A DNA stretch of 49,275 nt from Candidatus Woesearchaeota archaeon (GCA_018303505.1 JAGVYA010000021.1:1-49275); one strand, 5' to 3'; shown: positions 10,951 to 49,275, numbered from the stretch's first letter. Made by a program: numbers and translations. Notes: a model not told the origin generated them from the sequence alone.

Positions 10951-11520
10951 TCACTTTTGATATTTGCTATCCTTCTTCAAAATCCATTTTGCAGCATCAA
11001 GCAAATTCTTTGCAAAATAATCCGGACTTACTTCATTTTTAGCATTAATGCCATAGCCAGTCAGCACGTGAATTGTCTTGCAGCCTACATTTTTCCCCAT
11101 TTCAAAATCGCTTTTTCTGTCGCCTATCACAAATGATTTTTTCAAGTCAATTCCAAACTCTTCTGCTGCTTCTTGAAGGAACTTTGTTTTTGGCTTGCGG
11201 CATTCGCAGTTGTCCTCTGGCTTATGAGGGCAGTAATATGTTTTTTGAATTTTTATATTCTGTTTTTTCAATTCTTTAATTAAATGGTTATTGAATTTAT
11301 TGAAATCTTCTAATGTGTAATATCCCCTTCCGATGCCTGATTGATTTGTGATAATAATTAGCTTAAAATCTTTTGATAATAATTTTAAACCTTCGACTGC
11401 ATTTGGTATTAATTTGAAATCTTCCAGCTTATGATGGTAGCCAACGTCTTCAACCAAAACGCCATCCCTATCGACTAAGATTGCTTTGTTTTTGTTTTCT
11501 CCAATTTTTGTGGTATTCAT
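10951..11520 (-). CDS. gmhB: D,D-heptose 1,7-bisphosphate phosphatase (HAD family); current N-terminus is supplied by the inserted element
   Basis: DRDG, ITNQSGIGRG, CPH..EDNCECRKP, IGDRKSD. Confidence 0.92.
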   Translation of the reverse strand: MNTTKIGENKNKAILVDRDGVLVEDVGYHHKLEDFKLIPNAVEGLKLLSKDFKLIIITNQSGIGRGYYTLEDFNKFNNHLIKELKKQNIKIQKTYYCPHKPEDNCECRKPKTKFLQEAAEEFGIDLKKSFVIGDRKSDFEMGKNVGCKTIHVLTGYGINAKNEVSPDYFAKNLLDAAKWILKKDSKYQK

Positions 11521-12289
11521 TGTATCTCTTTCTATATTCTGGGTTTTGCATTCTTCTCTGATGATTTATTTGATGTTGCTTTTTTATAAGTTCATGTCTT
11601 ATAGGATTTGCCATATACTTATAGTATCTAATCTTATCTTTTTGCCTTCTTTTTAAATTTTCTTCATTTAATCTTTTATTGTTTTCTTCTGCAAACGGTC
11701 CTAACTTGTAATTCATGCATTTAGGAATGTAATCTTTTATCAAATTTAAGAATTTCTTAATTTGTTGAACACTAAAATACAAGTAATATCTCTTATAATC
11801 TCTGTTTATGGTGCAATTTATATCAAATTTTTCTTTCAAGAAATCCACTAAAATTTTGTTTTCTTCATATGACACATAAGTGGCAATTTTCGCATTTTGA
11901 TTTATATATCCAAAAGAACCATCATCACAATACCATATAGCCAATGCTAATGGTCCTACCTTCTGCAATGTTTCTTTTGCTATACATTTCTTATTATTTT
12001 TGTAAAATATTTTAAAATAACTGGTTAATACCGGGTGTGTTTTTGTCAATAATATTATATGGTAATAAACTTTGTTTGTGCGTGAATCAAAAACCTTAAA
12101 TTCTAAAGTTTTAGGTCTAAAACAATCTAAATATTTAGCTTTATATTCTAGATATTTTTTTTGTTTGAGTGAATGCTGTATCCTAAAATTTGCATTTATT
12201 GCTTTGCCTCTCAGTTGTAATCCACCATCCCCTAACAAACTTCCAATTAAAACTTGTTCTGCATCTAAATCTACTTTAGTGTATACCAT
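11468..12289 (-). CDS. LAGLIDADG homing endonuclease (two-motif, LAGLIDADG_2-like) with basic C-terminal tail
   Basis: VLIGSLLGDGGL and LALAIWYCDDGS motifs, plus QHSLKQKKYLEYK and IPKCMNYKL. Start placed at the ATG at 12289, preceded by GGAGGT. Confidence 0.92.
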   Translation of the reverse strand: MVYTKVDLDAEQVLIGSLLGDGGLQLRGKAINANFRIQHSLKQKKYLEYKAKYLDCFRPKTLEFKVFDSRTNKVYYHIILLTKTHPVLTSYFKIFYKNNKKCIAKETLQKVGPLALAIWYCDDGSFGYINQNAKIATYVSYEENKILVDFLKEKFDINCTINRDYKRYYLYFSVQQIKKFLNLIKDYIPKCMNYKLGPFAEENNKRLNEENLKRRQKDKIRYYKYMANPIRHELIKKQHQINHQRRMQNPEYRKRYNEYHKNWRKQKQSNLSR

Positions 12290-12500
12290 TTTAATAACCT
12301 CCGCAGTTTTTGAACTGCAAGAGTTTCCTAAAATTTTTGAGCCATATGTTTTTAGGCTTACCGTAGCCGACCTTTCTGAAGGAAAGGAAAAAACATAATG
12401 AGCGAAAAAATTACTCATTTAATCATCTCTCAAGAATTAGACCTTTAAATAGTTCACGCGAAAATGTCCAGTGCTTTTTTGTCCAGTGGTACGTAATTCC
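11473..12500 (-). mobile_element. 1028-bp homing-endonuclease insertion in the 5' end of gmhB
   Basis: Bounded by two versions of the KAILV codons: AAG GCA ATT CTA GTT G (12515-12500) and AAA GCA ATC TTA GTC G (11487-11472). Removing it gives MKKAILVDRDG, coupled by ATGA to the upstream stop. Confidence 0.85.
12441..12460 (-). promoter_or_regulatory. Putative BRE/TATA promoter inside the insertion
   Basis: Minus strand reads cgcgtgaacTATTTAAAgg, preceded by two direct CACTGGACA repeats. Confidence 0.5.
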
Positions 12501-13565: not shown

Positions 13566-14459
13566 TCAAATATTATCAACAATCTTTCTATGCAGTGTTG
13601 GTATTGTTTTTTCGTGCTTCTCTATTATTATAAATCCTTTTCCTCCTAATGATGTCGGCCTTTTCACAACATTTTCTCTTGGGCGATAATGGTCTATCAT
13701 GTCAAGGTTTGCTGCTGTTATGTTTTCAACTTTAAAGCCCAGATTTCTTGCTATTGTTAAAGCCTTCAAAAAAATTTCTGGAAGTATTACAGCACATCCT
13801 AGATTTAAGATAACACCATCTTCAAGCTTGCTCACGCTTTCTGCAAAAACCTTGAAGTCATGATAACTGGTTTTGCCAATTGCAGCTCCATCACAGCTTG
13901 GATGCTGATGTATTATATCGGTTCCGATTGCGACATGAACTGTTGCTGGCATGTTTAATTTGTAGGCATTCCATAAAATGCTGTATTCTTTGTTTGGCAA
14001 GTTTAAGTCATTAATTTTCTTTCCAATTGCAAAGCCCATTCCAAAGTTATTCTTTGCGCCTTCATTTATTGCCCCATTAAGAATGCCTCCAGTTTCCTCT
14101 ATCATTCCAAAAGTGCCGTCTTCGATTGTCTGCTCGACATATTCCGATGTTTCTCCGATAAGCGCAAGCTCAAAATCATGGATTGGGCCTGCGCCATTCA
14201 TTGCAATATGCTTTATTATGCCTTTTTTCATCAAGTCAATAATAAGCAAACTCATGCCAACCTTCATCACATGTGCGCCAATCATAAGAATTATTTGTTT
14301 ATTGTTTTTGTAAGAATTAATAATTTTGTTAACCAATTCATTGAAATCGTTTGAATTCATCATAATTTTAGAATTCTCAGGCATAATCAAATCATTCAAT
14401 CTTACTTTATTCTTTCTTTGCTTTATAGATATAGTTTTTATCTTATTAAAGTCCAACAT
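13566..14459 (-). CDS. Conserved hypothetical protein, probably deoxyhypusine-synthase-like (DHS-like) fold, within the heptose cluster
   Basis: GAHVMK.G, MNGAG.IHDFE, ETSE.V, TVHVAIGTDI.HQHP, G.AVILPE.FLKAL motifs. Confidence 0.6.
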   Translation of the reverse strand: MLDFNKIKTISIKQRKNKVRLNDLIMPENSKIMMNSNDFNELVNKIINSYKNNKQIILMIGAHVMKVGMSLLIIDLMKKGIIKHIAMNGAGPIHDFELALIGETSEYVEQTIEDGTFGMIEETGGILNGAINEGAKNNFGMGFAIGKKINDLNLPNKEYSILWNAYKLNMPATVHVAIGTDIIHQHPSCDGAAIGKTSYHDFKVFAESVSKLEDGVILNLGCAVILPEIFLKALTIARNLGFKVENITAANLDMIDHYRPRENVVKRPTSLGGKGFIIIEKHEKTIPTLHRKIVDNI

Positions 14460-14463
14460 TTTA

Positions 14464-14744
14464 TTTAAACATCAAAATTCCACTTATGTATCATAAGTGG
14501 TTTACATATAACTAAACATTGCATGGAATTTGGATGTCAGGAAAATGCAATGCATTTTCAGGATCTCGAAAATCTATGATTTTCGCGATGCTCAAAAACC
14601 ACTCAAATAAGTGGAATTTTGTAGCCATGAAAATTCAAGGAATTTTCAGGGTTTCGAAAATCGTGGATTTTCGCAATGTCCAAAACCAATGAATGTGATA
14701 GTAATATAATCATGCCACCCATCTATGATGTGTGGTTTTTGACA
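14464..14744. repeat. ~285-bp multi-hairpin dispersed element, copy 1
   Basis: Near-identical to 47718..48010. Contains many inverted repeats with 3-nt loops. Confidence 0.9.
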
Positions 14745-14765
14745 GATTAATAAAATTTTAACCAG

Positions 14766-15335
14766 CTAAGATATGCTCTTATCAACAAATTCGCAAATTA
14801 TGTGGAAAACCATAAGATGGTTTTCCTGTATTACTGGAGTATTATCTGAAGGAACTATAATCTCTATGTCAGAAGCATTCTTCATCTTGCCACCTCCTTT
14901 TCCAAGAAGACTTATAACATTCATCTTCAGTTTCTTTGCTTCATCAACAGCCCTTATGATGTTTTCTGAGTTGCCGCTTGTAGATATTGCAACAAAAACA
15001 TCATTTGGTTTCGCGAGAGCATGTAGTTGCCTTGCAAAAACTGTGTGGTACCCATAATCATTTGACCATGCAGTAAGCAACGAAGAGTCTACAGTCAATG
15101 CAATCGCAGGCAGAGCTTTTCTTTCCTTTTTGTATCTGCCTACAAATTCTGCCGCAAAATGGGAAGCCTGCGCTGCGCTTCCCCCATTTCCTGCAAGAAA
15201 AACCTGGTTTCCGGTCATGAAAGCTTTTAGTATTGCCTTCGCGGCACTTTCTATATCTGCAATTATTGACTCGTCAAGCATTGCCTTCTTTACTTGAAGG
15301 CTTTCAACAATCATAGTTTTTATGTCTTCTTTCAT
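14766..15335 (-). CDS. gmhA: Phosphoheptose (sedoheptulose-7-phosphate) isomerase
   Basis: GNGGSAA, HFAAE..GR, NDYGY..VFARQ, ISTSGNS, IQE.H. AGGTGA ribosome-binding site. Confidence 0.95.
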   Translation of the reverse strand: MKEDIKTMIVESLQVKKAMLDESIIADIESAAKAILKAFMTGNQVFLAGNGGSAAQASHFAAEFVGRYKKERKALPAIALTVDSSLLTAWSNDYGYHTVFARQLHALAKPNDVFVAISTSGNSENIIRAVDEAKKLKMNVISLLGKGGGKMKNASDIEIIVPSDNTPVIQENHLMVFHIICEFVDKSIS

Positions 15336-18490: not shown

Positions 18491-21400
18491 TTAAGAATTT
18501 GTATTAGTTACGTTTGTATTGTTTTTTATTAAAGTTACATTTTCAATCATACTTTCTTCTTTAACTTGTTTTTTAAGATATGATTCAACAATTGTGGCAT
18601 TTTTGCCTTCCCAATCAATCTTGTAAGTATAGATATCTGTTCCTGTCAAACCACGCTGATGGTTAAATAATTTAAAATATTTAAGACCATGACCTTGCAT
18701 ATAAAACATTCTTGTGAACATTCCTCCTGTAAGTTCTTTGCTCGATAAAACAACATCAAGCTCATTTTCATTTCTTGGGATTACTGTCATACCAAAATCA
18801 AGAGTGCTGCCATTAAACTCCTTGAAAAACAAGCCCTCTTCTGTAGTAAATGCCACTATCCTCGGCCTTACAATGCCTTGCTGTCCAATTGCAAAAACAT
18901 CATAATTGCTCAAGTTGATTTGAAAACCATTGCCGCACACATAAATTTCTTTGTCATTTTTACTGCAGCTTGTTGTTCCGCCATAGCCTGGCCATGGAGC
19001 AACCCATGTGTTGGCTTCGCTATCACTCGAAATCGATTGCACCTCAAAATAAATGTTTTCTGCCGTTTCTCTTGTGTAATTGAACTTTTTTATCATGTAT
19101 TCAACTGCTTTCTCCTGAGGCATTTTTCTTGCATTTTGCCATATGTCAGCCCTTTCAAAATTCCAAGAGCCAAAATGGCTCCAAACACCGCTTTTGCCAA
19201 TCATGTCTTCAGACGCGATGAAATAAGCTTCAGGCGGGTTGCAATGCGTATATGAAAGGATTTTTTTAATCTGCTTGTCGCTAATTTTTAATCCTTTCAA
19301 TTCTTTCTCAGCCTGCTCATTGCCCATTAGGATTATTTTGTTTAACACTTTCAATGAAAGATGTGTGTCATTAAACACTTCGTCTATGGCTCTAAAGCCT
19401 TCATAGTTGCCGCAGTCCAGCATCCTCAAAATGCCAACAGCCTGCCTTTCGTCATTTATCATTAAAAGTTTCCCAACCCAGTGTGCAGCAGGTGATGTCT
19501 GGGTAGTTCCGTCAAAAGTTACTGGCCTGTCAGCTATAGCTTTAAAATGATGCCCAAAATCCCACCATGAAGTTATTATTGCATCATCGCTTGAGTTTTG
19601 CTTTATTGCAATTAGAGCATTATGCCATGCATCGTTAATGATAGGTATATCAGACCCAGCAGTACTTATAGCACCTCTAATAGGGTTAACATAAATCAAG
19701 AGCAATAATACAATTAAAACACTGCTGCCTATAGCTTTATGAATCTTAAATTCTTTTGTTAGCCATTTCGACAAATAAACATAAGCTTTTCCAAGAGCAA
19801 CACCAAATGCTACGCTAAAGGCAGGAGCTAGCAATAGAGTGAACCTAATGCCTTTTATACTCGCAAAAATAGTTGATATCACCCAAAGAGATAATAGTAT
19901 TGAAAGTTTGAAATCGTATGATGAATCTTTTTTGTAAGTAGAAATACCAATCCTTATCAAAATAGGCAGCATTATCCAAATTAACAAACCAACAACAGAT
20001 ATGTCAAAACCCAACTTTCTAAATAAAAAGTATGTGCCATAAAATACAATAGTACCAATTATGTAAATGAAATCAATTTTTTTTACTCCTTCGCTTCTAG
20101 ATATTGCCAGAGCTAACCCCACTAAACTTATGAAAAAAAGAAATGGGCCGCCAATTGAGTTTATTATGCCGTTAATTGAGCCTTCATTCAGCTCTGCAAC
20201 AGTTGTTAAGACATTTGGCCATAATGAAGCACTTACAGGAGCTTTAATTGATGGGAAGCTTAAAGGCCCAAGAAAGCTGTTTCTAAAAGTGGACCAACCT
20301 GAAAATAAAGTAGCAAATATTGCTGTCGATAAAAAATAAACAAAACCCACTATCAAAATATTTCGCAAAGCTAAATTTAAAAAAATAGATTTTATATTTC
20401 TTTTTATATTGTCAAAATTAACAAATATTAGATATAATAATGTAAAGAAAATTGTTGCAAGCAAAAAATCAAATATGTACCACCATCCACTCCAAGCAAA
20501 AGTATAAAGCCCCGTAAAAAAACCAGCAAGTAAGGCTAGAGATACAATTTTTAAGGTATTTTTAACGTCTATGGTTGCCGCAAATATCCAAGTGATTAGC
20601 AAAGGAAAGAAAATAACCCATACATCATTATCCGGGTGTAAGGTTCTTGATAGAAAAGCAGCATTAACTGCCATAATCATGCCTGCAAAAAATCCACCAG
20701 TATTACCTGCAATCTTTTTTGCGATTAAAAAAACAAGCAGTACGCACAATGCCGAAAAAAATACGATAAGGTAAAACATAGATTTCATTAATGTTAAACT
20801 AGGAGCAAAAAAATGCAGAAATTTGTAAAAATAAGCATATGCATATGAGGGGAACATGTCTGGAAATACGAATCTTCCAACTGGAGCTAGTTGATGATTG
20901 TCAAATGGTTTTCCTTCTTTTAATATGTCGCCCGGGTGCCCGTGCTCGACAATATTTTTTGCGTATCTGAACCAGTAATATGGGTCTATATCCGGCATGT
21001 AACTTTTTCCACTTTCGTCCTGAAAAAAACTTCTGAAATAATTTGAAGTTGCCTTTATCTGCTCATCAATCTGCCCCTTATTTTGGGCTAACACCTTCTG
21101 CAGTTCTGTATCAACAAGCGCATTTTTGTTAGCATCAGGCAAATTTGGATATTGCTGGTCAATTCCTGCCCTTATCTGTGATTTTATGCCGTTGATTACA
21201 CTATTTACTGCCCAGTCATCAGTTATCGGCAAGAATCCAGCCTGCATTCTGACATAGATTGAAAGAACTATTGGAATTAGCGCAAGAAAAACAATGCCAT
21301 ATTTTTTGAAGAAATCAATAACATTAGTCCAGTTTACAGATATTTCTTCACCAATTTCTTTTGTTTCTTCTTCGCTAGATTTAAAAATTTTTTTAACCTT

Positions 21401-21667
21401 GCCAAAGTCAAAAGACAATTCCATGTCCTCGTCATCTTTTGTGATGTGTCCTGCTTTTGTTTCTTCTTTTTTTTCACCTTTAAATAAATTTTTTATCTTA
21501 CCGAAATCAATGGCTATATCATCATCTTCTTTTTCTACTTTTGCAGAGTCTTCTATAGCTTTTATATTTTCATCTATATTCTTGTCATCTTCTTTCTTAT
21601 CGCTTTTAAAGAACTTTTTTATCTTGCCAAAGTCGATAGATATCTCTTCATCTTCTTTTGGATCCAT
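18491..21667 (-). CDS. aglB: Oligosaccharyltransferase AglB (STT3 family)
   Basis: DIDPYY, DND, TVAEL, RF, SWWDFGH, DG, DMIGK; multi-TM N-terminal half. Confidence 0.95.
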   Translation of the reverse strand: MDPKEDEEISIDFGKIKKFFKSDKKEDDKNIDENIKAIEDSAKVEKEDDDIAIDFGKIKNLFKGEKKEETKAGHITKDDEDMELSFDFGKVKKIFKSSEEETKEIGEEISVNWTNVIDFFKKYGIVFLALIPIVLSIYVRMQAGFLPITDDWAVNSVINGIKSQIRAGIDQQYPNLPDANKNALVDTELQKVLAQNKGQIDEQIKATSNYFRSFFQDESGKSYMPDIDPYYWFRYAKNIVEHGHPGDILKEGKPFDNHQLAPVGRFVFPDMFPSYAYAYFYKFLHFFAPSLTLMKSMFYLIVFFSALCVLLVFLIAKKIAGNTGGFFAGMIMAVNAAFLSRTLHPDNDVWVIFFPLLITWIFAATIDVKNTLKIVSLALLAGFFTGLYTFAWSGWWYIFDFLLATIFFTLLYLIFVNFDNIKRNIKSIFLNLALRNILIVGFVYFLSTAIFATLFSGWSTFRNSFLGPLSFPSIKAPVSASLWPNVLTTVAELNEGSINGIINSIGGPFLFFISLVGLALAISRSEGVKKIDFIYIIGTIVFYGTYFLFRKLGFDISVVGLLIWIMLPILIRIGISTYKKDSSYDFKLSILLSLWVISTIFASIKGIRFTLLLAPAFSVAFGVALGKAYVYLSKWLTKEFKIHKAIGSSVLIVLLLLIYVNPIRGAISTAGSDIPIINDAWHNALIAIKQNSSDDAIITSWWDFGHHFKAIADRPVTFDGTTQTSPAAHWVGKLLMINDERQAVGILRMLDCGNYEGFRAIDEVFNDTHLSLKVLNKIILMGNEQAEKELKGLKISDKQIKKILSYTHCNPPEAYFIASEDMIGKSGVWSHFGSWNFERADIWQNARKMPQEKAVEYMIKKFNYTRETAENIYFEVQSISSDSEANTWVAPWPGYGGTTSCSKNDKEIYVCGNGFQINLSNYDVFAIGQQGIVRPRIVAFTTEEGLFFKEFNGSTLDFGMTVIPRNENELDVVLSSKELTGGMFTRMFYMQGHGLKYFKLFNHQRGLTGTDIYTYKIDWEGKNATIVESYLKKQVKEESMIENVTLIKNNTNVTNTNS

Positions 21668-30514: not shown

Positions 30515-33500
30515 GTGATGATGAAAAAAGAGGGTTTAAGTGATTTTTTTAATTCTCAAAATGGCAAAGTAAACATTGTGCTGTTGTTCTCTATAGTTTT
30601 AGTTTTTGTTCTAAGCGTTTATTTTGTTGAAGCATTGACAATAACAATTAATGCACCTGGAAATTTATCTTACGTCGGCGGCAACAATACTAGAAATGTA
30701 AATTTTACATTTACACCGGTTTGGAGTGGTCCTGATGAAAATGCAACCTATAATTGTTCTTTGTATACTAACTCCAGTGGCATATGGGACAGTGTCAGGA
30801 ACTTTACACCAAAAAGTGCTGGCACAAACATATCAAACAATACTCTAAGCTGGGTTAATTTCACTTTTAACAGCGAAGGTAACTTTACTTTCAACATAGG
30901 GTGCTATGCCACAAATTATACATCTTCTGCTGCCCTAAACTTCTCTGGTCTCGGCAATGGAAATGGCAATAGAACATTTTTCATTGATACTTTAGCTCCT
31001 ACAATAACTTTGGACACCCCGAAAGGTGGTGTATTGGCTGATGTTACAGCATACAACATAACTTCTTACGAAACAGCCACATTCTATGTTAATGTTTCCG
31101 ATAACTCTACTCAATTTGTATGGATGGTGCTGAACACCAATGCCACTGTTACTCCTCTAGCTCCTAACCCAGGACTAAATGAAAGTGTTAATCGCACTAT
31201 GACAGGGAACGGAACTGGTATTTCTGCTCTAGACACAAGACAATATTTCTTCAATTTGTCGGGTATAATGAACTTTAATAGCACTTTTACAAGTCCAGGC
31301 CCACATGGTGTAAGTTTCTGCGCAAATGATACGCTTGGCAGGCTCACGTGCACCAATAAGAGTGATTACATCATAAAAGGAATGAATGTAACCCAGATGG
31401 AGAATATGTTTGCTGGAATGCAGCAAGGAATAACTGGATTTGCATTCGGTGGATTGAACATCACTCTTGGAAATGGAACAGAAATACCAGAAAGCACATT
31501 TATGAATCCAATTGATGGAGTTGTAGTTGGTGGCTTAACTCATAAGAACTTTACCTTCATATTTAATTTTTCCAATAAAGCAATTATACACATTGTTGCT
31601 GGCACAATTGACGAAGACCAGTTTGCAAACGCAAGCAACTCAAGAGTTAATAGTACGCCAACTACAGAGGTAAGGCAGCAATTAGGTCGTTACACACCAA
31701 ATATGGCATGGGCTGATATTGCAAGCTTTATACCAAACGAAGTCCGTTACGAGTATGGAATAATACAAATAGGTGGTACAACCTATTCAAAGAAGATGTA
31801 CTGTAATGGCACCTCAATGTCAGCTCCTCAGTGTCATACAATAAGCCAGTGTAATGCAACAGTATTTGGCATACTGAATCATTCTATTGTGATTCCGCCA
31901 AATGATGGATGCTGGCTTGAATCTGGCGTGATTAATACACAAAGCCTAAGTTCAGGCTATACATATATATTTGTTGACAAATTCTCAGGCGCTGTTGGCG
32001 GAGAGGACCGTGGACCGCCAAATGCAACATTTATTTCACCTGCTGCAAGTGAGGCAAATCATAGACTTAATAGGTCAACCACAGTAACCCAATTAATAAA
32101 CTTTACAGTTGACGACACTGATAGTACAGGGCTTAACTTAAGCGCTAATTCTTCGATAAATGTTACAATTACCCTTGGCGGAAGTCAAGTGGCGCTGTTC
32201 AGTTATCTAAACAACGCTTCAACAAACTTAACCTGCACATCTGCAGATACAGTTTCTCCGCAGAACACAACCAGAATAACCTGTAATGTTACATACGGAT
32301 TTAATTCAAATGGAACATATTTAATAAACGTTACTGGCAGAGACGCAAGCAATAACAGCAACGCTATGAATACATCATCTAATTATGTATATTTCACAGT
32401 CGATCAAATACCTCCTATTTTTATCTATTATAACTTTACAAATTCAAGCAATTTTAATACAACTGGTACTGATGCAACTGCTTCGTTTGAATTAGGAACA
32501 ACTGCAGGCACTTCAAGAGCACAAGGAGATGCTAATACTGGAAGAATTTTTGCAGTTGCTAATTGGACAGACAACCTGACAGATGCAAGATATGGAATGC
32601 TGCAATTCTATAACACTTCTAAAGCAGCAGGGCAAGAATGGCGGACTTTGAATACAACAGCGGTAAATGGAAGCGGTCTCCAATTTAGAAGTGGCGGATG
32701 GACAAACTTCTCATTCCCCATCCCCAAAGGCCATAATAATTTTGAAGGCAAGAACGTAAGCTTCAGGATTATTGCCAATGATACTTTAGGCAATGTTAAT
32801 AATTCCGATTTAGTTAAGAACTTTACAATACAAATTAATGATACAACTGTGCCTGCTACAACTATTAATGGGACTATCTCAACAAATAACACAAATACAA
32901 CAAATACAAGACCTCTTGTAAGTTGGTTTATAAATGACAATAATAAACTAACAAGTATAAATGTAAGTGTTGATGATACTGTAGCTCCTGGCACAGGAGT
33001 AGAAAGTAATTGCCAAAAATATGCATTCTTTGACACAACTGCTGGTGCTAATAATGTAGAAAAATTCAGAAATTCATCATTCCAAATTTTAGATGATTCA
33101 GCATGCACCTTAGCAAATGGTACACACTTCATAAGGATAATAGCAATTGATTCATGGAGTAATTCCGAGACAGTTTTCCATAACTTCACAGTACAAAGCG
33201 GAAGCACGCCAGAACTTACATTAACAGTATTGCAAAACGGCTTATCTGCAATAAACCAGTCTAATGTAACGCCATACACCGGCATGAACTTTTCAGCAAC
33301 AGTCGGAGCAACAGGCACACTTAAGAACATGAGCTTTACATCAAGCTGCAATTCAACTGTACAAACATTTACAAATAACACAATGATATGGCCATTTAAT
33401 TATTCAGACTGTAAAAGAAGGGAAGCTAACCAGACAGTAACAGTGACTGTATTTGACGCTGCGGGAAATTTCATTACCAATACAACACAATTTTTGGTTG

Positions 33501-35698
33501 ATGATTTAGGACCTTCATTAGCAGTAGATGATCCAACAAATGGATTTAGTGGTCCTAATGAAATAGCTCTTAACTTGTCTGCAAAAGACGGCAATCAGAG
33601 AATTTCATTCTTTGGATACTATTTGGACGACAGACCGATACTAAGATTGAACTTAACAGGAAGCTATGCAGGTGCAGCAGCAAATATCTCTTTATCTAAT
33701 TATACTAACTTTACGCCCGGTACACATAGCATTAAGTTTACAGTTAACGATACTTTAGGCAATTCAAGAAACAGCAGTACCATCACGTTTACTGCAACTG
33801 GACCGATAATATCAGGTGAAATAGGTAATAGTACAAGCGGATACCTAACCAATTTAATGGGTTATCCAGCCAATGTAACTGTTAAATTAAAAACCTCAGA
33901 TGGCAGCTATCAGCAAGTCGATGCAAATGCCACAGACGTAAGCAGCACATTTGAGCTATTACTATACTTAAATGAGACGAGCGCTGACAATCAAATAAAT
34001 GTAACAATAACAGAAATAAATGGCTCTGGAGCTAATTGGGATAAGATAAACTTCTCTGTCTTAATAAATGAATCTAAAGTGCAACTGGATATACAAAATA
34101 ATTGGAGCAATGCTATAAGGCATCTGGTATACTTCAACAGCAGCATTGATGAGTTTTTATCAAACGCTAATGATTACTATGGAATTGTTGTATTGCCAAT
34201 GAATGTAAGCGGTGGCTTGGAGATATGGTGGATAGGCAATGAATCTAATTTAAGCAGAACTAATGTAAGTGCGTGCACTGGCGGCTTTAGCGCAACAACA
34301 ACAACGCCATGCTTTAATTTTACTTCTGGCGGAAAAACAATTGTACAAGTACCTCACTTTAGTATAGTTGTAGTTTCTAACAATTCAAATGCTCCAACAA
34401 TTAATGTAACAACTCCAGATTCAGCAGCAAATCAAAGCATAAGCATGTTTGTGCCTAATATAACAGTTTCGAATGATGCAGTATTGTGCGAATATTCTGT
34501 TAATGGGACAGTGCCAAAAGTAACAATGACAAAGAGCGGAAATATATGTCTTGGCCAAACTGAAAGGTTTAAAAATCTCAATGCGTTAGATGGAAACTAT
34601 AACTTTACATTTAATGTTACCGACTCCTCAAGTAATGTAAACACTTACATATTGAAATTTAATGTTACAGATGGCACAGCGCCAAACACGCCAAACAGCA
34701 CAAGAATATCGGTCAGTGAGAGCAGCACTTCTGCAACAGTAACCATAAGCGGAATGAATGAAAGCGTTAATGCGTCTATAACTGCCTTTTCCGGATCATC
34801 AAATGCAACTAGCACAATTGCAACCCCGCAGCCAGACTTTAACACCACTCAGGCAGTTTTATTCCCCACTTTGACCGCAAGCACAACTTACCATATGAAT
34901 ATTACTATATGCGACTTTGCAGGAAACTGTGCAACAAATAGCACCAATTTGGCCTTCACAACAAGCGCAGCAGCAGCTACTACAACTACAACAACCACAA
35001 CAACAAGTGCAGCAGGTGGTGGCGGAGCAGCACCAACAAGCAATGTAGAAGCATCAGCAGCAAGACAATGGGACAGCATAGCAGCAGGCTCAAGTGGCGT
35101 ATTAGCCATAAATAACGAGAAGATAGCTGTAACAGGAGTCATAATTGATGTGCAGAATACAGTTGCAAATCCTTCAATAACTGTTGAAAGCCTAACCTCA
35201 AACCCATTATCAACTGCAGCAACAGCAGCAAAAGTGTACCAATACTTGCAATTAAGAAAAAGCAATATCGCTGATTCAGACGCATCAAAGATTACAATCA
35301 ACTTTAGAGTGCCAAAATCATGGCTGACAAGCAACAATGTTGCAGAAGACAACATTGTGCTGTACAGATACAGCGATAATAAATGGAATTCATTGCCAAC
35401 AACAAAGACAGGAGCAGATGCAAATAATGCATTATACCAATCAATAACACCTGGATTTAGCACTTTCGCTATAGGGACAACAGAGGCTGCTCCAGCTGCA
35501 CCAATCCCAGAGGCGCCGCCAGAAGAAGTGCCAGCAGAGGTGCCAGCAGAAGTTCCAGTAGCTCCAACAGAGGTACCAGCAGCACCAGAAGTCAAGAAGC
35601 CAGCACTAAGCAGAACAGCAATCGCATGGATTGTTGTTGTAATAATTGTAATTGTAGCAGCAGTTGGCTATTACATGTGGCAGAAGAGGAAAGAATAA
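30515..35698 (+). CDS. Large surface glycoprotein with PGF-pre-PGF domain and Ig-like repeats
   Basis: 1727 aa. Signal/TM at the N-terminus, repeated D..GN and D..P motifs, very dense NxS/T sequons, poly-Thr linker, VYQY...F.V...W...TPGFSTFAI, Pro/Glu linker and C-terminal TM. Confidence 0.85.
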   Translation: MMMKKEGLSDFFNSQNGKVNIVLLFSIVLVFVLSVYFVEALTITINAPGNLSYVGGNNTRNVNFTFTPVWSGPDENATYNCSLYTNSSGIWDSVRNFTPKSAGTNISNNTLSWVNFTFNSEGNFTFNIGCYATNYTSSAALNFSGLGNGNGNRTFFIDTLAPTITLDTPKGGVLADVTAYNITSYETATFYVNVSDNSTQFVWMVLNTNATVTPLAPNPGLNESVNRTMTGNGTGISALDTRQYFFNLSGIMNFNSTFTSPGPHGVSFCANDTLGRLTCTNKSDYIIKGMNVTQMENMFAGMQQGITGFAFGGLNITLGNGTEIPESTFMNPIDGVVVGGLTHKNFTFIFNFSNKAIIHIVAGTIDEDQFANASNSRVNSTPTTEVRQQLGRYTPNMAWADIASFIPNEVRYEYGIIQIGGTTYSKKMYCNGTSMSAPQCHTISQCNATVFGILNHSIVIPPNDGCWLESGVINTQSLSSGYTYIFVDKFSGAVGGEDRGPPNATFISPAASEANHRLNRSTTVTQLINFTVDDTDSTGLNLSANSSINVTITLGGSQVALFSYLNNASTNLTCTSADTVSPQNTTRITCNVTYGFNSNGTYLINVTGRDASNNSNAMNTSSNYVYFTVDQIPPIFIYYNFTNSSNFNTTGTDATASFELGTTAGTSRAQGDANTGRIFAVANWTDNLTDARYGMLQFYNTSKAAGQEWRTLNTTAVNGSGLQFRSGGWTNFSFPIPKGHNNFEGKNVSFRIIANDTLGNVNNSDLVKNFTIQINDTTVPATTINGTISTNNTNTTNTRPLVSWFINDNNKLTSINVSVDDTVAPGTGVESNCQKYAFFDTTAGANNVEKFRNSSFQILDDSACTLANGTHFIRIIAIDSWSNSETVFHNFTVQSGSTPELTLTVLQNGLSAINQSNVTPYTGMNFSATVGATGTLKNMSFTSSCNSTVQTFTNNTMIWPFNYSDCKRREANQTVTVTVFDAAGNFITNTTQFLVDDLGPSLAVDDPTNGFSGPNEIALNLSAKDGNQRISFFGYYLDDRPILRLNLTGSYAGAAANISLSNYTNFTPGTHSIKFTVNDTLGNSRNSSTITFTATGPIISGEIGNSTSGYLTNLMGYPANVTVKLKTSDGSYQQVDANATDVSSTFELLLYLNETSADNQINVTITEINGSGANWDKINFSVLINESKVQLDIQNNWSNAIRHLVYFNSSIDEFLSNANDYYGIVVLPMNVSGGLEIWWIGNESNLSRTNVSACTGGFSATTTTPCFNFTSGGKTIVQVPHFSIVVVSNNSNAPTINVTTPDSAANQSISMFVPNITVSNDAVLCEYSVNGTVPKVTMTKSGNICLGQTERFKNLNALDGNYNFTFNVTDSSSNVNTYILKFNVTDGTAPNTPNSTRISVSESSTSATVTISGMNESVNASITAFSGSSNATSTIATPQPDFNTTQAVLFPTLTASTTYHMNITICDFAGNCATNSTNLAFTTSAAAATTTTTTTTTSAAGGGGAAPTSNVEASAARQWDSIAAGSSGVLAINNEKIAVTGVIIDVQNTVANPSITVESLTSNPLSTAATAAKVYQYLQLRKSNIADSDASKITINFRVPKSWLTSNNVAEDNIVLYRYSDNKWNSLPTTKTGADANNALYQSITPGFSTFAIGTTEAAPAAPIPEAPPEEVPAEVPAEVPVAPTEVPAAPEVKKPALSRTAIAWIVVVIIVIVAAVGYYMWQKRKE

Positions 35699-43871: not shown

Positions 43872-46800
43872 CTACTCCCACACCCTTATCTCTATTATAG
43901 CAGGCCCCCACAAGGAAGGAACTTTTGAGATTGTTAGTGTGTTCACATTAAGATTGCTCTCGTCGATATTGACATTAAGTTTGCCGTTCTTGTCTATATC
44001 CAAATTGCTGAAAAGCTGGAAAACTGCATTGTCCAGCGCATCATTTGCATCATAAGTTTTGGATGCGCTTGTATAACTGCATGTATCTGCTCCGCTATAA
44101 GTTGAAGGAACTTTTATTGTAGAAAATGTTCCATCCTCAAAGCTTACTGTCCAAGAACAGCCATCTGATTTAGCAACAACACTGCTGTAATCAGCAAATC
44201 CGCTTAGCAATAAAGTATATATTGCTCTGTCATCGCTTGAGCCATTTGTTGGTGCTGTTGAGTTAACGCCTGTGCTTATTGTAATGCTGTTGCTTCCTTC
44301 ATTTATATTGCCTACTGGAATATTTACTGCAAATGGATCGCCTAAAATCTGATAGTCACTTCCGTAGTCGCTTAATCTATAGACTGTATTTCCATTAACA
44401 ACTAACTTGTCTGTCCACTTGCTTCCAGAATAAGATGTTACTTTTGCATCTGAAACTGATGTATTTGCATAAATTGTCAAAGTTCCAGTTGAAATATTGT
44501 TACCAAACCTGTCAGTTTCAAAGCTAAGCGGTACTTTATTGAATTGAATATCTGGTGCTGAGTAGTTAAATTCTATATAAGAATCAGGATAAAGCCTTGT
44601 TTTTTGTATGTTTCCGCTGGTTATATTTATGTACTGAGCTTCAAAAGTAATATTCACAACCGATTGTGCTATTTGCGTGTATATACTCAGCAGTTCATCC
44701 TCATTGTTGCTAGTGTAGAAGTGTGAGCAATCATCACAGCATGCAGTTTGGTTTAATGTGTTGATGGCAGTTGCGCCTACATTACCAAATGCAATTGCAT
44801 AGATCTTAATTCCATACAAATCATTAGCTTCGCAAGCCTTTGCAATTGTCTCTGCTCTTGCTCCTGCAGAATCACATCCTGAACAATCTCCTATTTTTGT
44901 ATTTGCCTCGCCATCACTCATCACAACCATTGATTTAGACTTGGCATAACTATAGCCGTCATCGCTCCAAACAACGCTTAAATTTACATTTCTGAAGCGC
45001 CATTCATCATTGTCTCCACTGGTTCTTTTACAGCCAGAAGTTGTTCCTGAAGTAAAATTTATTTCGTTCATTCCATTTTTCATCCACGCTGTTGGCACAT
45101 CAATTAGCACTTTTTGCCAAACATTTGTATTGTTCCATTCCTGATAATCAACTCTGCCAATGTAATTGCCGTTTACGTAAACACAATCAAAATAATTTGG
45201 GCTGACATCAATTGCTTCAAACTCTAGGCTTACAGCTTTCGTTTTAGATTTGTCTACATTAATGTTCAGATTAACTGTGGCAATTTGCTGGAACGGCGAA
45301 TCACCAATTTGCACTTCGCTAGAGGCTGTGTTAAACTCAATGCCAGGCGCAGAGCTTTGAGTTTGCCATACACTTATTTTTACATCCTTAAAGTCCCAAT
45401 TATCATTAGTCCCCGATGTCGCAAAGCAACCGTTAGTAGTTCCTGCTGTTATCGTTACATTTGCAACATTACCAACAAACCATTTTGGCTTTAAAGGGTA
45501 AGAACATGTATGCCATCCAGGATCGCCTAATGGTTCGCACATTCTGCCTAGATAGATTCCATTAAAATATATGCATTGTTGGTAATTATTTTCAGTCTCT
45601 ACCGATTTTCCTAGCACCGTCAAACGTGATTTGATCAATTTATTTGGGTTAATAGTAACGTTAAATTTTTCAGTCACTGAATAAAGAGAAGTTGCATCGC
45701 CTATGCTGAATCTGGTCTCATTAATTGCTGAAGTCTCATTGAAGCCATGCAATTTTTCTTCCTCAGTCAAAAGCTCTGTCGCGCTTGCAATGCCGCAAGA
45801 AATACAAGTGTAGTCGCAAAATTCATTTGAGTAATTGCTGACACGATACTTAAGTGATGCGTTGTCAATGCTGAAGTCATGAAAATCACATACTGGATCA
45901 GTTTCTGAGCCATAACCAACTAAGGCTACTTGGTTGCCTTGCGTTGCCAGAATTGTGTCAATGAATTTTTTATTCGATTTAATGGCTACATTGTCTCTTC
46001 TATCATGGCAGCCTCCAGTTGGGTTTGAATCGCAAATTCCTGCTGTGCAATTGACATTTACATCGCAAGCATTCATGCTGCCTGTTCTGTCTGTAATCAA
46101 AGCTGCATCAGAATTTGAGCCTCCTAAAATATAGCTTACATTCCTCAATCCCATTCTAATTGGAATGGTTTTTTTGCCGAGAAGATTGTAGTTTAGCATG
46201 CCTGAAATATTTGAATTATTTAACAGAATTGTTTGCTCGCCTAAAGAGGAATTTGATTCAAAAACAGTTGTATTGCCTATTGTCAGGTAAATTTGATATT
46301 GGCTTAGGAAATGAAGCGATATATTCATATTGCTTGGCTCATTAGGGGCGTAAATCGATGAATACAAATTAATAACACCCTCAATGCCAGGGAACAAATA
46401 TTTTTCATACCCATGAGTTTGTGTGTCATTGTAAGAAGAAGTTGTGTAAGTTGCTCTTAAAAACCCTCCGGCAATATAGTTATTTTCTGATGCAAAGTTT
46501 ATTGTTATATTATTTTCTCCTGGCTTAAAATTAACCAAATAAGCATTGCTAATATTCCATTTGTCAGCAAGCATATTGCCTCCTCCAGAAGAGCCCTTGA
46601 CATAACTTCCTGAAAAAAAGCCGTTGATGTAAAGATCAAAATTACCGCCTGAATCCACTTCAAGATAAGAGCTGTTGAAAGAAATTACATCATTAGGCAG
46701 CACTAATTTTTTTGTTAAATTGCCATCTCCTTCATAACCCCCAAAATAAACATAGGCATTTGTCTTCTTGCTTTTAATTCCATTCAGCAGAACTCTTGCT

Positions 46801-47264
46801 GTGAATCCCTCTGTCGGCTTTGCCTTTGCAATGCCGCTTATGATTTTTCTTGAGCTGACAAGCGCTCTTTTAACAGGGATATTCCTTGAATAAATCTCTT
46901 CACCATTGATTAATACGCTAACTCCATAACTGCTTGGTATAATGTCATCAGTAAGATTTTTTGTAAGATTATATGACAAATTCAATTTCTCTTCAGTGTT
47001 TTCAGCCCAGAAATCTCCAATCTGCTCAATAATGGTATTATCTGTATTTGTTATTTCCCCATTTGCAATCAACGTCTTCACATAATCATTTTTCACATCA
47101 CCAACAGTCAAAGTGGAAAAAACCCTCACTAAATCCTGAGAAGCATAGTTAACATTGACTTGCTGCTGCTCCTGAGAATAAAAATTAGAAACAAGCAGAA
47201 CTGCAATTATTATAATGCCTGATGCCAGCAAGCTGTCGATTGTAAAAAAAATTGCCTTTTTCAT
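43872..47264 (-). CDS. Large pilus-associated adhesin with von Willebrand A domain
   Basis: KKA/IFFTIDS class III-like signal, MIDAS DRTGS, T....GI, VMSDG, IYAIAFG; Cys-rich. Confidence 0.82.
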   Translation of the reverse strand: MKKAIFFTIDSLLASGIIIIAVLLVSNFYSQEQQQVNVNYASQDLVRVFSTLTVGDVKNDYVKTLIANGEITNTDNTIIEQIGDFWAENTEEKLNLSYNLTKNLTDDIIPSSYGVSVLINGEEIYSRNIPVKRALVSSRKIISGIAKAKPTEGFTARVLLNGIKSKKTNAYVYFGGYEGDGNLTKKLVLPNDVISFNSSYLEVDSGGNFDLYINGFFSGSYVKGSSGGGNMLADKWNISNAYLVNFKPGENNITINFASENNYIAGGFLRATYTTSSYNDTQTHGYEKYLFPGIEGVINLYSSIYAPNEPSNMNISLHFLSQYQIYLTIGNTTVFESNSSLGEQTILLNNSNISGMLNYNLLGKKTIPIRMGLRNVSYILGGSNSDAALITDRTGSMNACDVNVNCTAGICDSNPTGGCHDRRDNVAIKSNKKFIDTILATQGNQVALVGYGSETDPVCDFHDFSIDNASLKYRVSNYSNEFCDYTCISCGIASATELLTEEEKLHGFNETSAINETRFSIGDATSLYSVTEKFNVTINPNKLIKSRLTVLGKSVETENNYQQCIYFNGIYLGRMCEPLGDPGWHTCSYPLKPKWFVGNVANVTITAGTTNGCFATSGTNDNWDFKDVKISVWQTQSSAPGIEFNTASSEVQIGDSPFQQIATVNLNINVDKSKTKAVSLEFEAIDVSPNYFDCVYVNGNYIGRVDYQEWNNTNVWQKVLIDVPTAWMKNGMNEINFTSGTTSGCKRTSGDNDEWRFRNVNLSVVWSDDGYSYAKSKSMVVMSDGEANTKIGDCSGCDSAGARAETIAKACEANDLYGIKIYAIAFGNVGATAINTLNQTACCDDCSHFYTSNNEDELLSIYTQIAQSVVNITFEAQYINITSGNIQKTRLYPDSYIEFNYSAPDIQFNKVPLSFETDRFGNNISTGTLTIYANTSVSDAKVTSYSGSKWTDKLVVNGNTVYRLSDYGSDYQILGDPFAVNIPVGNINEGSNSITISTGVNSTAPTNGSSDDRAIYTLLLSGFADYSSVVAKSDGCSWTVSFEDGTFSTIKVPSTYSGADTCSYTSASKTYDANDALDNAVFQLFSNLDIDKNGKLNVNIDESNLNVNTLTISKVPSLWGPAIIEIRVWE

Positions 47265-47412
47265 TATTTTGGTTTTAGTTATGTTTATTTTATTGTAATC
47301 GTGATTGATTTTGTTATTTTTTGTTATCTCCCTTAACGCAATATTTTTCTTTTACCATAAATTTTTTCAACAAACATCACAAACGGTTCACTTTCTTCAT
47401 GTTTGCTTCTAA

Positions 47413-47465
47413 ATGTTGGAAATCGGAGATTTCCGAGCATGATCGGAAATGCGAAGCATTTACCG
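47413..47465. repeat. Twin triloop hairpins
   Basis: ggaaatc-gga-gatttcc and cggaaatgc-gaa-gcatttaccg. Confidence 0.7.
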
Positions 47466-47596
47466 ACAAGTCATTGCTGATTTTTGAATTTTTTATTTAT
47501 TGAAATTTTTGATGTATAATCCTCATTATTGTTTCAAATTGCGGATATTTTTGAATATTTATTTTATTTATTGTGTTTTTGTTGTTGATTCTATTT

Positions 47597-47692
47597 CCCG
47601 AGAAATTTTATTAAAATTTCTGGGCACAGGAAATCGGTGAGATGCGAGTGAGCTCATTGCGAACTCGCTCACAACTGTCCGATTTCCTCGTG
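47597..47692. repeat. Hairpin pair with palindromic element copy C inserted in one loop
   Basis: agaaatttt-att-aaaatttct; aggaaatc[ggtgagatgcgagtgagc-tcattgc-gaactcgctcacaact]gtccgatttcct. Confidence 0.75.
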
Positions 47693-47717
47693 TATTGAAT
47701 TATTATTATTTTTTATT

Positions 47718-48010
47718 TTTAAACATCAAAATTCCACTTATGTTTCATAAGTGGTTCAAGTATAGCTAAACATAACATGGAATTTGGATGTCAGGAAAAT
47801 GCAATGCATTTTCAGGATCTCGAAAATCTATGATTTTCGCGATGCTCGAAAACCACCACAAATAAGTGGAATTTTGTAGCCATGAAAATTCAAGGAATTT
47901 TCAGGGTTTCGAAAATCGTGGATTTTCGCAATGTCCAAAACCACTGAATGTGTTAGTAACCATAAGTAACCATAATCATGCCACCAATCTATGATTGGTG
48001 GTTTTTGACA
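47718..48010. repeat. ~285-bp multi-hairpin dispersed element, copy 2
   Basis: Near-identical to 14464..14744, with an extra 10-bp tandem duplication agtaaccata. Confidence 0.9.
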
Positions 48011-48020
48011 ACTTAATTTA

Positions 48021-49275
48021 TTATTGCCATAAATAAATTATCATTCTGACAATTTTTGAATTGTAAGTCAAGTAGCGCTCAGTCTTCACAAGCTTATTTT
48101 TGCTTATGCCTGTAACATTAATAGGATTGCATGTGCCTTCTATAAAACTTAATGAAAGATCTTCTACTACTTTTATGAAATCTCCATTGAAAATTGGAAC
48201 ATCAAAGTCGCTAAAGAAATAGACAGTGCCATTGCCGTATTGCCACTTAGCAATTGCATAATCTTCAGGAGTTTTATTAAAAGAGGCGATAATTTTGAAG
48301 TTAACCGCTGGAAACGGGTTGTAGTCATCATCGTTAGGGTCAGTTTCAATAGGAAGTACTGTATTATTAGTTACAAAGTAATATTGTATAAATGTGATAG
48401 CATCTCCAACGTTTAACGCTAAGTATTGGTCGCTGTTATTAACTATTGCTGCTCTTTCTGGCTCTGATTGCCCTGTTTTTTTCCAGAATCGAATTCCATT
48501 TAAATCTGGTCCCGAGCCTGATGTTGTTAGTTCTCCGCTTATGATTATGTACCCTCCTCTAGCGGTATAGTTGTTAAGCTCTCTATAATATTTATTGTAA
48601 TCTCCGCCACTTAATAATGGATGTTCGATCACTACTAAACTGTACTTGCTCAAGTTGCTCATTAAGCCATCTAAGCCATATATGTCATTATTCTGGTCAT
48701 CAAAATAAATATCCGCTTTAAATACATTATTCATAAAATCTTTCAAGAATGAATCTGCTGGATCTTGGTAATAATAAGCGCTTTTGATATTGTAGCTGAC
48801 ATTTACAGAAGGGTATCCTATGGCGCATACGCCGTTAATGTTGATAATCTCTCCTTTCTCATTTACAAAAAATACAACATAATCATACACAGTTCCAAAT
48901 TTTTTTTTTGTGATGGTATAGTTAAGCTGCTTGAAGGATTTTACTTTTGTCGCATTTACTTTTTGCTCATCAGCAATTCCTATTCTTATTACTGTTGTAT
49001 TGTCCCAGTTTGCGGGATAGCCGCTTAAAGTCAATGAAGAGGACATTGCCTTTGCATCTGTAAGCAAAGTATTAAGTTCTCCCTTTTCCTGCTTCTGGAA
49101 ATTGGTTGTATAGCTGAAATAAACAACAAGGGTAAAGGTGAAGAGCAGCAATGCTATTGCAAAGTCCATGTACCAAGCCTGACCTGAACGCGAGCTTGAG
49201 ATGAATGCGAGCGTGCGCATTCTCGCACGCAACTCGAAGCGTTCTCGCAAGCATCTTGCTTTAGTTGATATAGAT
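48021..49275 (-). CDS. Pilin-like accessory protein, 5' end probably outside the window; nested palindromic insertion in the signal peptide
   Basis: Frame is open to the window edge (SISTKA...QAWYMDF plus hydrophobic helix). G.P.NW and IG motifs, and a C-terminal ERYL...IYLW. Confidence 0.75.
   Translation of the reverse strand, partial: SISTKARCLRERFELRARMRTLAFISSSRSGQAWYMDFAIALLLFTFTLVVYFSYTTNFQKQEKGELNTLLTDAKAMSSSLTLSGYPANWDNTTVIRIGIADEQKVNATKVKSFKQLNYTITKKKFGTVYDYVVFFVNEKGEIININGVCAIGYPSVNVSYNIKSAYYYQDPADSFLKDFMNNVFKADIYFDDQNNDIYGLDGLMSNLSKYSLVVIEHPLLSGGDYNKYYRELNNYTARGGYIIISGELTTSGSGPDLNGIRFWKKTGQSEPERAAIVNNSDQYLALNVGDAITFIQYYFVTNNTVLPIETDPNDDDYNPFPAVNFKIIASFNKTPEDYAIAKWQYGNGTVYFFSDFDVPIFNGDFIKVVEDLSLSFIEGTCNPINVTGISKNKLVKTERYLTYNSKIVRMIIYLWQ
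49182..49256 (+). repeat. Nested palindromic elements (copy D: 39-bp outer plus 36-bp inner), in-frame
   Basis: Outer acctgaacgcgagcttg[...]cgaagcgttctcgcaagcatct; inner agatgaatgcgagcgtgcgcattctcgcacgcaact (49199-49234). Confidence 0.8.

Follow-up and report, generated by a model that had tools for sequence, protein, structure and literature searches.

Two structured repeats on a Woesearchaeota contig are probable palindrome-associated elements of the IS200/IS605 type

In the insertion sequence (IS) IS608, the transposase TnpA binds subterminal hairpins of the top strand and recognises each cut site by pairing with the four bases 5' of a hairpin foot (cut site CL, TTAC, with guide GL, AAAG; cut site CR, TCAA, with guide GR, GAAT), and the element inserts 3' of a target tetranucleotide with no DNA gained or lost, according to the sections of the IS608 papers drawn on here (PMC3201880, PMC5934647). 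Palindrome-associated transposable elements (PATEs) were described in Haloquadratum walsbyi together with related IS605-type transposons, and smaller repeats insert into their near-terminal palindromes, according to the excerpted account (PMC3119063). A 2024 census places a 'Woesearchaea' genome among the archaea densest in MITEs (transposable elements of the miniature, inverted-repeat type) in the part used here (PMC11602168). Here we analyse two related hairpin-rich repeats, copy A and copy B, on a 49,275-nt stretch of DNA (the window) from Candidatus Woesearchaeota archaeon (GCA_018303505.1 JAGVYA010000021.1:1-49275), and compare them with these systems.

Copies A and B are probably non-autonomous members of the IS200/IS605 group, namely PATEs, of a family specific to a genus-level group of groundwater Woesearchaeota. 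A first-pass annotation made from the sequence had proposed either a mobile element or an undescribed structured RNA or single-stranded DNA switch. The mobile part of this proposal is supported: the repeat is multi-copy across the genus, orthologous sites are empty in relatives, identical copies lie at different loci, and the ends are common with those of an IS that encodes a Y1 transposase. Nothing supports the RNA-switch part: there was no Rfam match at the gathering score and no orientation bias relative to neighbouring genes. The word 'undescribed' also fails as a description of the kind of element, because PATEs with nested small repeats are already on record in Haloquadratum in the excerpted account (PMC3119063). 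The case is thus a fairly ordinary, well-resolved one that reveals no new kind of system. We found no specific description of this family in the literature on Woesearchaeota MITEs or on miniature inverted repeats of DPANN archaea, supplementary element catalogues not covered.

The defining PATE features that we tested, as given in the excerpted account (PMC3119063), are all present, except that the window elements carry 6-bp complementary subterminal stretches. Both copies are too short to encode a transposase (278 and 290 nt), possess near-terminal palindromes and lack a target duplication. The 5' palindrome lies farther from its terminus than the 3' palindrome does, a short targeting oligonucleotide lies at the 5' end, and the ends are related to those of IS200/IS605-type transposons. 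Terminal-only mini versions exist in both groups (52 bp in Haloquadratum; 43 nt here, at loci L034 and L045), as do small repeats in the near-terminal palindromes (SMR-A in Haloquadratum; hairpin modules here). The host, by contrast, is a DPANN archaeon rather than a haloarchaeon; the IS200-type partner carries tnpA only, most elements in Haloquadratum being of the IS1341/tnpB type (PMC3119063); the core here contains a conserved, covarying central hairpin; and the two groups are not similar in sequence. The modules also differ, being 50-52-nt twin hairpins where SMR-A measures about 110 bp (PMC3119063), using two fixed junctions of the central stem in addition, and showing no sequence relation to SMR-A. 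The picture of a PATE with nested small repeats is thereby extended from haloarchaea to genome-reduced archaea.

To delimit the family, we built a covariance model from 15 copies of the basic form. This model gave 151 matches at E<=1e-5 in 36 of the 43 genomes of one Woesearchaeota genus, with up to 16 matches per genome and six in the host genome (assembly of 1.3 Mb, 35% G+C and 87.8% complete, in which no SSU rRNA was found). BLAST, which the first-pass annotation had suggested for copy number, produced matches in 33 of 36 sampled genus genomes and, outside the genus, in five of 24 genomes belonging to other families in the order; a simple duplication yielding only two copies can therefore be set aside. 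A third copy in the host genome lies on contig C23 at 77% identity, with fragments elsewhere. Exact matches to the left end occurred in 41 contigs, 40 of which belong to metagenome-assembled genomes labelled Woesearchaeota, Nanoarchaeota or 'uncultured Methanosarcinales'; the remaining one, from Clostridiales, sits inside a coding region and was rejected as a chance match. Two 177-nt copies within a single genome (L054 and L056) are identical and have unrelated flanks. In four groundwater or soil metagenomes, the summed contig depth at the element ends reached about 100-300 times that of the flanks, and contigs broke exactly at 14467 and 14744. Exact-pattern scans, which register exact matches only, returned no match in viral contigs. 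No copy lay inside a long open reading frame (ORF). By hand tally, orientation relative to co-directional neighbouring genes was mixed (eight sense, seven antisense), and same-contig pairs of copies comprised seven in the same and three in opposite orientation, too few for a test of replication-strand bias.

The basic form, of about 176 nt (174-178 nt in 44 distinct full copies), consists of a left, a long central and a right hairpin. It starts with AAACATCAAAATT, followed by the left hairpin CCACTTATG-ttt-CATAAGTGG, a variable linker of 24-25 nt and the long, imperfect central hairpin; after a second variable linker of 24-25 nt come CATG, the right hairpin CCACCnnTC-tat-GAnnGGTGG and finally TTTTTGACA. 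The left hairpin lies 13 nt and the right hairpin 9 nt from the respective border. The extreme termini, AAACA and GACA, are not inverted repeats, and subterminal TCAAAA and TTTTGA are complementary over 6 bp. Each window copy equals the basic form plus one 52-nt module at each of two sites, i and ii, and the features of both copies are as follows.

14467-14744, + strand: copy A, probable non-autonomous element, 278 nt; borders set by family conservation, with contigs breaking at both ends
14464-14467, + strand: TTTA, the target tetranucleotide kept beside copy A and its putative cleavage site on the left, a role assigned from the IS608 rule in the cited part of PMC5934647
14476-14500, + strand: left end of copy A, with putative guide AATT (14476-14479) and hairpin CCACTTATG-tat-CATAAGTGG (14480-14500)
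14524-14688, + strand: central long hairpin of copy A, from the RNAalifold consensus, with two modules interrupting the stem
14524-14537 and 14590-14602, + strand: 5' arm of the central hairpin
14610-14624 and 14677-14688, + strand: 3' arm of the central hairpin
14538-14589, + strand: twin-hairpin module at site i of copy A, 52 nt, with hairpins at 14541-14559 and 14567-14585
14625-14676, + strand: twin-hairpin module at site ii of copy A, 52 nt, with hairpins at 14629-14647 and 14655-14673
14711-14744, + strand: right end of copy A, with putative guide CATG (14711-14714) and hairpin CCACCCATC-tat-GATGTGTGG (14715-14735)
after that hairpin, + strand: tail of copy A, comprising T5, TGAC (14740-14743) and the conserved A (14744)
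47721-48010, + strand: copy B, 290 nt, with modules as in copy A; its right linker has an 11-nt insertion

The two copies are 90% identical, and their likeness falls off sharply beyond both borders. Most of what the first-pass annotation had described was borne out: both copies lie where it placed them, on the + strand, with borders now refined by family conservation, and neither contains an ORF of at least 60 aa (for copy A, the longest overlapping one has 57 aa and begins with TTG). Beyond the right ends, minus-strand stop codons follow after 21 nt (14766, copy A) and 10 nt (48021, copy B); all six stems with 3-nt loops are present (the four module hairpins and the two end hairpins); the right hairpin carries a compensatory change (C/G in copy A, A/T in copy B); and the left end has a perfect 15-nt partner (14473-14487 with 14607-14621). 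The alternative pairings of the left end follow from one short motif that recurs in both orientations. The proposed tandem unit of about 65 nt does not exist. Tandem Repeats Finder reported nothing, the internal direct repeat recurs at 88-89 nt with 60-65% identity, and the twin-hairpin blocks are two distinct 52-nt insertions, one on either side of the central stem. The host genome also contains short elements of 60-75 nt (C1:14563-14640, C27:10520-10590, C31:24481-24543 and C71:4976-5045), each made of an CAAAAACCAC tag, a right-end-type hairpin and a complementary tag, and thus equal to the right third of the basic element alone.

Comparison with relatives showed how the window copies came to lie between the following genes.

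13566-14459, - strand: 297-aa gene lying downstream of copy A, no Pfam family
14766-15335, - strand: gene upstream of copy A, SIS-domain protein, GmhA-like (Pfam SIS_2, E 4.5e-28)
43872-47264, - strand: 1130-aa gene lying downstream of copy B, with a weak match to VWA
48021-49250, - strand: 409-aa gene lying upstream of copy B, no Pfam family

In 10 of 11 relatives, the gap between the SIS and 297-aa genes measures 8-25 nt, compared with 309 nt here. The 409-aa and 1130-aa genes overlap or are separated by at most 52 nt (0-52 nt) in 6 of 11 relatives; the corresponding 759 nt in the window are filled by copy B and other hairpin repeats. Relatives already carry the run catTTTATTT, which borders copy A on its left, at their empty sites, so the T-run is target and not element. 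Across the 44 distinct copies, the left flank has T at positions -3 and -2 in every case and at -1 in 35; written as TT-N-A, N is T in 35, G in five, A in three and C in one. The right flank is unconserved. None of the 44 copies is bordered by a target duplication, and the two empty-site comparisons agree. The element therefore inserted into formerly tight gene junctions without duplication and with a T-T target preference. These insertion data bear on the idea that a DDE transposase moves the repeat as a classical MITE bounded by terminal inverted repeats. The complementary TCAAAA and TTTTGA, the inverted tag-plus-hairpin layout at both ends, and the one DDE_Tnp_1 gene and three rve-type genes of the host genome would suit such an element. 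We nevertheless regard it as extremely unlikely, given the lack of target duplication, a conserved flank that is asymmetric and confined to the left side, and the absence of the element end motifs from all four DDE or rve loci.

A PATE of the IS200/IS605 type would need a transposase-bearing partner. Y1 (IS200-type) transposase genes are present in 23 of the 43 genus genomes, and we scanned 54 fetched Y1 loci (177 kb) for the element's ends. Only one locus, L168 in genome G019, had perfect element-type hairpins, one on each side of the gene. Its Y1 gene is intact (148-175 aa, with HVH and YIRKQ motifs), its protein scores 58 bits against Pfam Y1_Tnp (cut-off 23), and the nearest solved structures are the transposase chains 2xm3 and 2xma (E 7e-10). 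Hairpins likewise flank its orthologues in genomes G065 (74% identity, with a single in-frame stop) and G033 (42%); between the G019 and G065 units, homology stops just outside the hairpin-bearing ends and the flanks differ. Neighbouring ORFs at L168 (573-1190 and 1774-2319) read through the Y1-flanking hairpins, giving the peptides MPPVYDGW (N-terminus) and PPVFDWWEK (C-terminus), so the hairpin DNA may contribute coding ends, or the ORF ends may be artefacts.

A metagenome scan with the G019 Y1 protein returned 47 loci at 62-94% identity. In 34 of these, the right end reads ...AATG-hairpin-TTGTTTAC and is followed by unrelated flanks; in 14, the left end reads (flank)TCTA-ATCCAAAGAGTT-hairpin. 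The IS unit is about 650 nt long and encodes tnpA only. An alignment of four element and five IS right ends contains 22 invariant columns, blastn pairs the two over 26 nt at 88-92%, and the IS variants L202 and L217 end in CATG-hairpin...TTTTGACA, exactly like the element. The left ends have a common layout with 13 of 22 aligned bases alike, and the + strand of the element corresponds to the tnpA sense strand of the IS. Membership in one family, the borders, and ends common with a transposase-bearing IS are thus shown. In four metagenome IS copies (L202, L217, L229 and L230), the right-end hairpin sits inside an outer GC-rich stem, which suggests that the IS itself has been invaded by another hairpin repeat. 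The abundant IS200 family was also tried as partner and rejected: eight Y1 loci and a 722-nt IS200 with seven copies have ends unrelated to the element, so the commonest IS200 of the genus is not the partner. By hand tally, Y1-positive genomes averaged 4.6 element matches (23 genomes) and Y1-negative genomes 2.3 (20 genomes), a difference that is confounded by relatedness and completeness and was not used as evidence.

The hairpin-flanked Y1 gene also invites comparison with the bacterial repetitive extragenic palindromes (REPs), their BIME and REPIN assemblies, and the associated RAYT enzymes, which resemble the present case in having short extragenic palindromes, inverted pairs, a Y1-family enzyme and mosaics of small repeats, as outlined in the cited part of bioRxiv 2021.07.10.451892. 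An archaeal counterpart would have the end hairpins as inverted REP-like units maintained by a domesticated, single-copy, RAYT-like Y1 protein. The element does resemble two inverted tagged palindromes around a spacer, and the cognate Y1 is single-copy and hairpin-flanked in each of the three genomes that hold it. We consider this reading quite unlikely, however. The Y1 unit behaves as a mobile IS and not as a domesticated gene, with sharp common borders and unrelated flanks in the 34 metagenome loci and with flanks that differ between G019 and G065; the cognate Y1 occurs in 3 of 43 genus genomes, compared with 36 of 43 for the element; and a genome holds at most 16 matches, with copy numbers in the tens, where REPINs form hundreds of doublets of about 100 bp (bioRxiv 2021.07.10.451892, in the part cited). 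The element also has a layout in common with another bacterial repeat. BOX elements of Streptococcus pneumoniae likewise combine conserved end modules with internal modules that vary in number, and they are predicted to fold strongly; their likeness to the window element is one of layout only, and the mobilising enzyme and the end structure may well differ.

We applied the IS608 pairing scheme, as set out in the cited part of PMC5934647, to the ends of the element and the IS, with the following outcome.

IS right end: guide AATG, predicted cut TTnC, observed end TTAC
element right end: guide CATG (28 of 44 copies), predicted cut TGnC, observed TGAC (44 of 44), followed by the conserved A
element left end: guide AATT (44 of 44), predicted cut TTnA, observed flank TT-N-A with N variable

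Guide and cut thus differ in a compensatory manner between the right ends of the IS (AATG and TTAC) and the element (CATG and TGAC). Together with the flanks, the scheme points to probable cuts at TTNA/AACATC...TGAC/A (slashes mark the cuts) and a target of about TTNA^A; with cuts at TTNA/A and TGAC/A, copy A would span 14468-14743. Like IS608 and ISDra2, the present system would combine a Y1 HUH transposase and subterminal hairpins with insertion 3' of a tetranucleotide kept at the left flank, DNA being neither gained nor lost (PMC3201880, PMC5934647), and guide tetranucleotides 5' of the hairpin feet would be complementary to the predicted cut sites (PMC5934647); the agreement is with the cited parts of those papers. 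The window elements differ from IS608 in having no transposase, in hairpin distances of 13 and 9 nt as opposed to 19 and 10 nt, and in a probable T-rich TTNA target as opposed to TTAC (PMC3201880, PMC5934647, same parts).

Taken together, the ends suggest a single-strand mechanism, in which each copy would keep only what a Y1 (HUH) transposase needs: end hairpins about 13 nt (left) and 9 nt (right) from the boundary, each preceded by a putative 4-nt guide. A TnpA dimer supplied in trans, probably by the hairpin-flanked IS, would bind both hairpins while the + (top) strand is single-stranded, make its left cut after TTNA and its right cut after TGAC, and free a single-stranded circle. The circle would then be pasted 3' of another T-rich TTNA site with nothing duplicated, and the conserved central hairpin would travel as passenger sequence. 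Hairpins acting in single-stranded nucleic acid would fit this scheme, because IS200/IS605 elements are recognised as folded single-stranded DNA. The probable cut sites and the defined target are now attached to the repeat, and its natural guide and cut-site variants offer material for probing the IS608 base-pairing rule.

The folds of the element are under selection. Against 200 shuffles, the fold of copy A had z scores of -8.3 (+ strand RNA), -7.1 (- strand RNA) and -7.9 (+ strand DNA), with none of the 200 shuffles as good in any of the three tests. In an alignment of 50 distinct copies, 94.7% of cells were paired and 24 of 47 pairs showed changes on both sides; the substitutions are compensatory. 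Cells with double changes numbered 105, compared with about 30 in column shuffles (none of 500 reached 105) and at most 15 when the partners were slid. Compensatory double changes occurred in all nine pairs of the left hairpin and in 11 of the 22 pairs of the central hairpin. The G.U pairs of the central hairpin are conserved on the + strand only, and the consensus fold energy is -37.6 kcal/mol on the + strand versus -26.9 kcal/mol on the - strand. G.T cells also exceed A.C cells (185 versus 38, or 79 versus 38 leaving out three fixed G.U pairs), in an alignment whose fitting to the + strand model favours this outcome.

Such a strong, covarying and strand-biased fold could also be that of structured small RNA genes transcribed independently from the + strand, with the left T-run and AAA as a TATA-like box, the right hairpin and T5 as terminator, and mobility as a secondary matter. 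The TTTAAA at the left border, the hairpin followed by T5 at the right border and an orientation independent of neighbouring genes would be in keeping with this reading, which we judge very unlikely. A start about 25 nt past the box would fall in the left hairpin, whose nine pairs all covary; the T-run is pre-existing flank and lies outside the element; and the ends match those of a transposon. The window contained no Rfam match at the gathering score, including none to a known family that would have accounted for the repeat, and a permissive scan of 14400-14800 returned sub-threshold hits only, to RNAI (28.4 bits versus 47), mir-991 and mir-33. A tRNA scan of the window found none. Two further candidates were rejected: intron-like termini with a bulge-helix-bulge, dropped on inspection by eye because the flanks are unconserved and cannot form an outer helix, and an archaeal origin-recognition box for TTCCAC...GTGGAA, dropped because of the copy number and intergenic scatter.

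Several observations weigh against placing copies A and B among IS200/IS605-type PATEs. A cognate Y1 gene was not found in the host genome (no match to Pfam Y1_Tnp; best tblastn E 0.58 with the G019 protein; assembly 87.8% complete). Within the genus, close orthologues of the cognate transposase occur in 3 of 43 genomes plus one remnant, and the element in 36 of 43. Likeness between element and IS is confined to the ends, the cores being unrelated, and amounts on the left to 13 of 22 bases and hairpin architecture; the IS left end fits the guide rule only one base off the element's best register. Under strict hairpin detection, only 14 of 31 metagenome loci had a flanking hairpin upstream and only 14 of 30 had one downstream, and more divergent relatives of the transposase have different or undetected ends. 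The 6-bp TCAAAA/TTTTGA complementarity is at odds with classical IS200/IS605 elements and PATEs, which are described as lacking inverted repeats. The excess of G.T over A.C cells is biased, since the alignment was fitted to the + strand model. Finally, no transposition intermediate or excision allele was seen in the metagenome contigs: those of four DNA runs, which cannot show rare alleles, contained no circle junction and no joint skipping the whole element, and their joints only swapped module content.

Among the other transposase families searched for in the host genome, the DDE_Tnp_1 and rve loci mentioned above were found: IS110 and OrfB_IS605 were absent, and there was one sub-threshold TnpB zinc-ribbon match. 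With no cognate transposase in the assembled 88% of the genome, the two window copies, which are 10% apart, may be immobile relics. The identification of these copies as probable PATEs explains a conspicuous structured repeat of DPANN (Woesearchaeota) genomes and ties it to a concrete transposase-bearing partner. It also helps annotation, because the repeats break metagenome assemblies at their borders and push apart otherwise adjacent genes.

Inserts of constant size at constant positions distinguish longer copies from the basic form, and the variable linkers keep their length. The occupancy of the four insertion places was as follows.

site i, in the central stem, on the 5' side of an internal loop (32 copies): 17 empty, 14 with 50-52 nt, one with 99 nt
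site ii, straight across from site i (33 copies): 23 empty, nine with 50-52 nt, one with 96 nt
left hairpin loop (40 copies): 37 unexpanded, three expanded
right hairpin interior (41 copies): 35 unexpanded, six expanded

The spots are therefore the two end-hairpin loops together with a pair of junctions on facing sides of the central stem, with none in the variable linkers. By eye, the module junctions showed no duplication of at least 2 nt. Hairpins of the GAAAAT...ATTTTC type are scattered in the host genome at 54 sites, versus one to six in shuffles. In genome G017, another filling of 209 nt, which includes a twin-hairpin module on its own, occupies the junction between the SIS and 297-aa genes (locus L087); such repeats thus seem to land repeatedly in tight gene junctions.

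The 52-nt twin-hairpin blocks would accordingly be smaller repeats that landed later at two fixed junctions of the central stem and, in other copies, also in the loops of the end hairpins. We tentatively suggest, as a possibility that is less likely than not, that the 50-52-nt blocks and the GC-rich hairpins of other copies are separate ultra-small mobile elements that seek out unpaired positions in the folded single strand of another element. If so, modules in the hairpins recognised by the transposase could be hitch-hikers on the PATE or natural disruptors of it, and genome-reduced DPANN archaea would harbour a nested, parasite-of-parasite system. Further small hairpin repeats occupy the interval between copy B and the 1130-aa gene (47265-47716); they include an CCCGAGAAATTTT-att-AAAATTTCTGGG hairpin at about 47597-47624 and an GGAAATCGG...CCGATTTCC hairpin at 47629-47687 with a GC-rich hairpin nested in its loop.

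Elsewhere, the window encodes an STT3/AglB-type gene and heptose-pathway genes, as identified with Pfam. The 1058-aa STT3-domain ORF (- strand) contains direct repeats of 36-72 nt at spacings of 99 and 126 nt (21380-21660), which suggest a repeated peptide segment near the N-terminus of an oligosaccharyltransferase-like protein. A free-standing ORF of the LAGLIDADG_2 homing-endonuclease type (11468-12418, - strand, 316 aa, Pfam E 2.9e-37) sits among ordinary genes with no obvious intron or intein host. A 1727-aa ORF at 30515-35698 (+ strand) has no Pfam family at E<=0.001.

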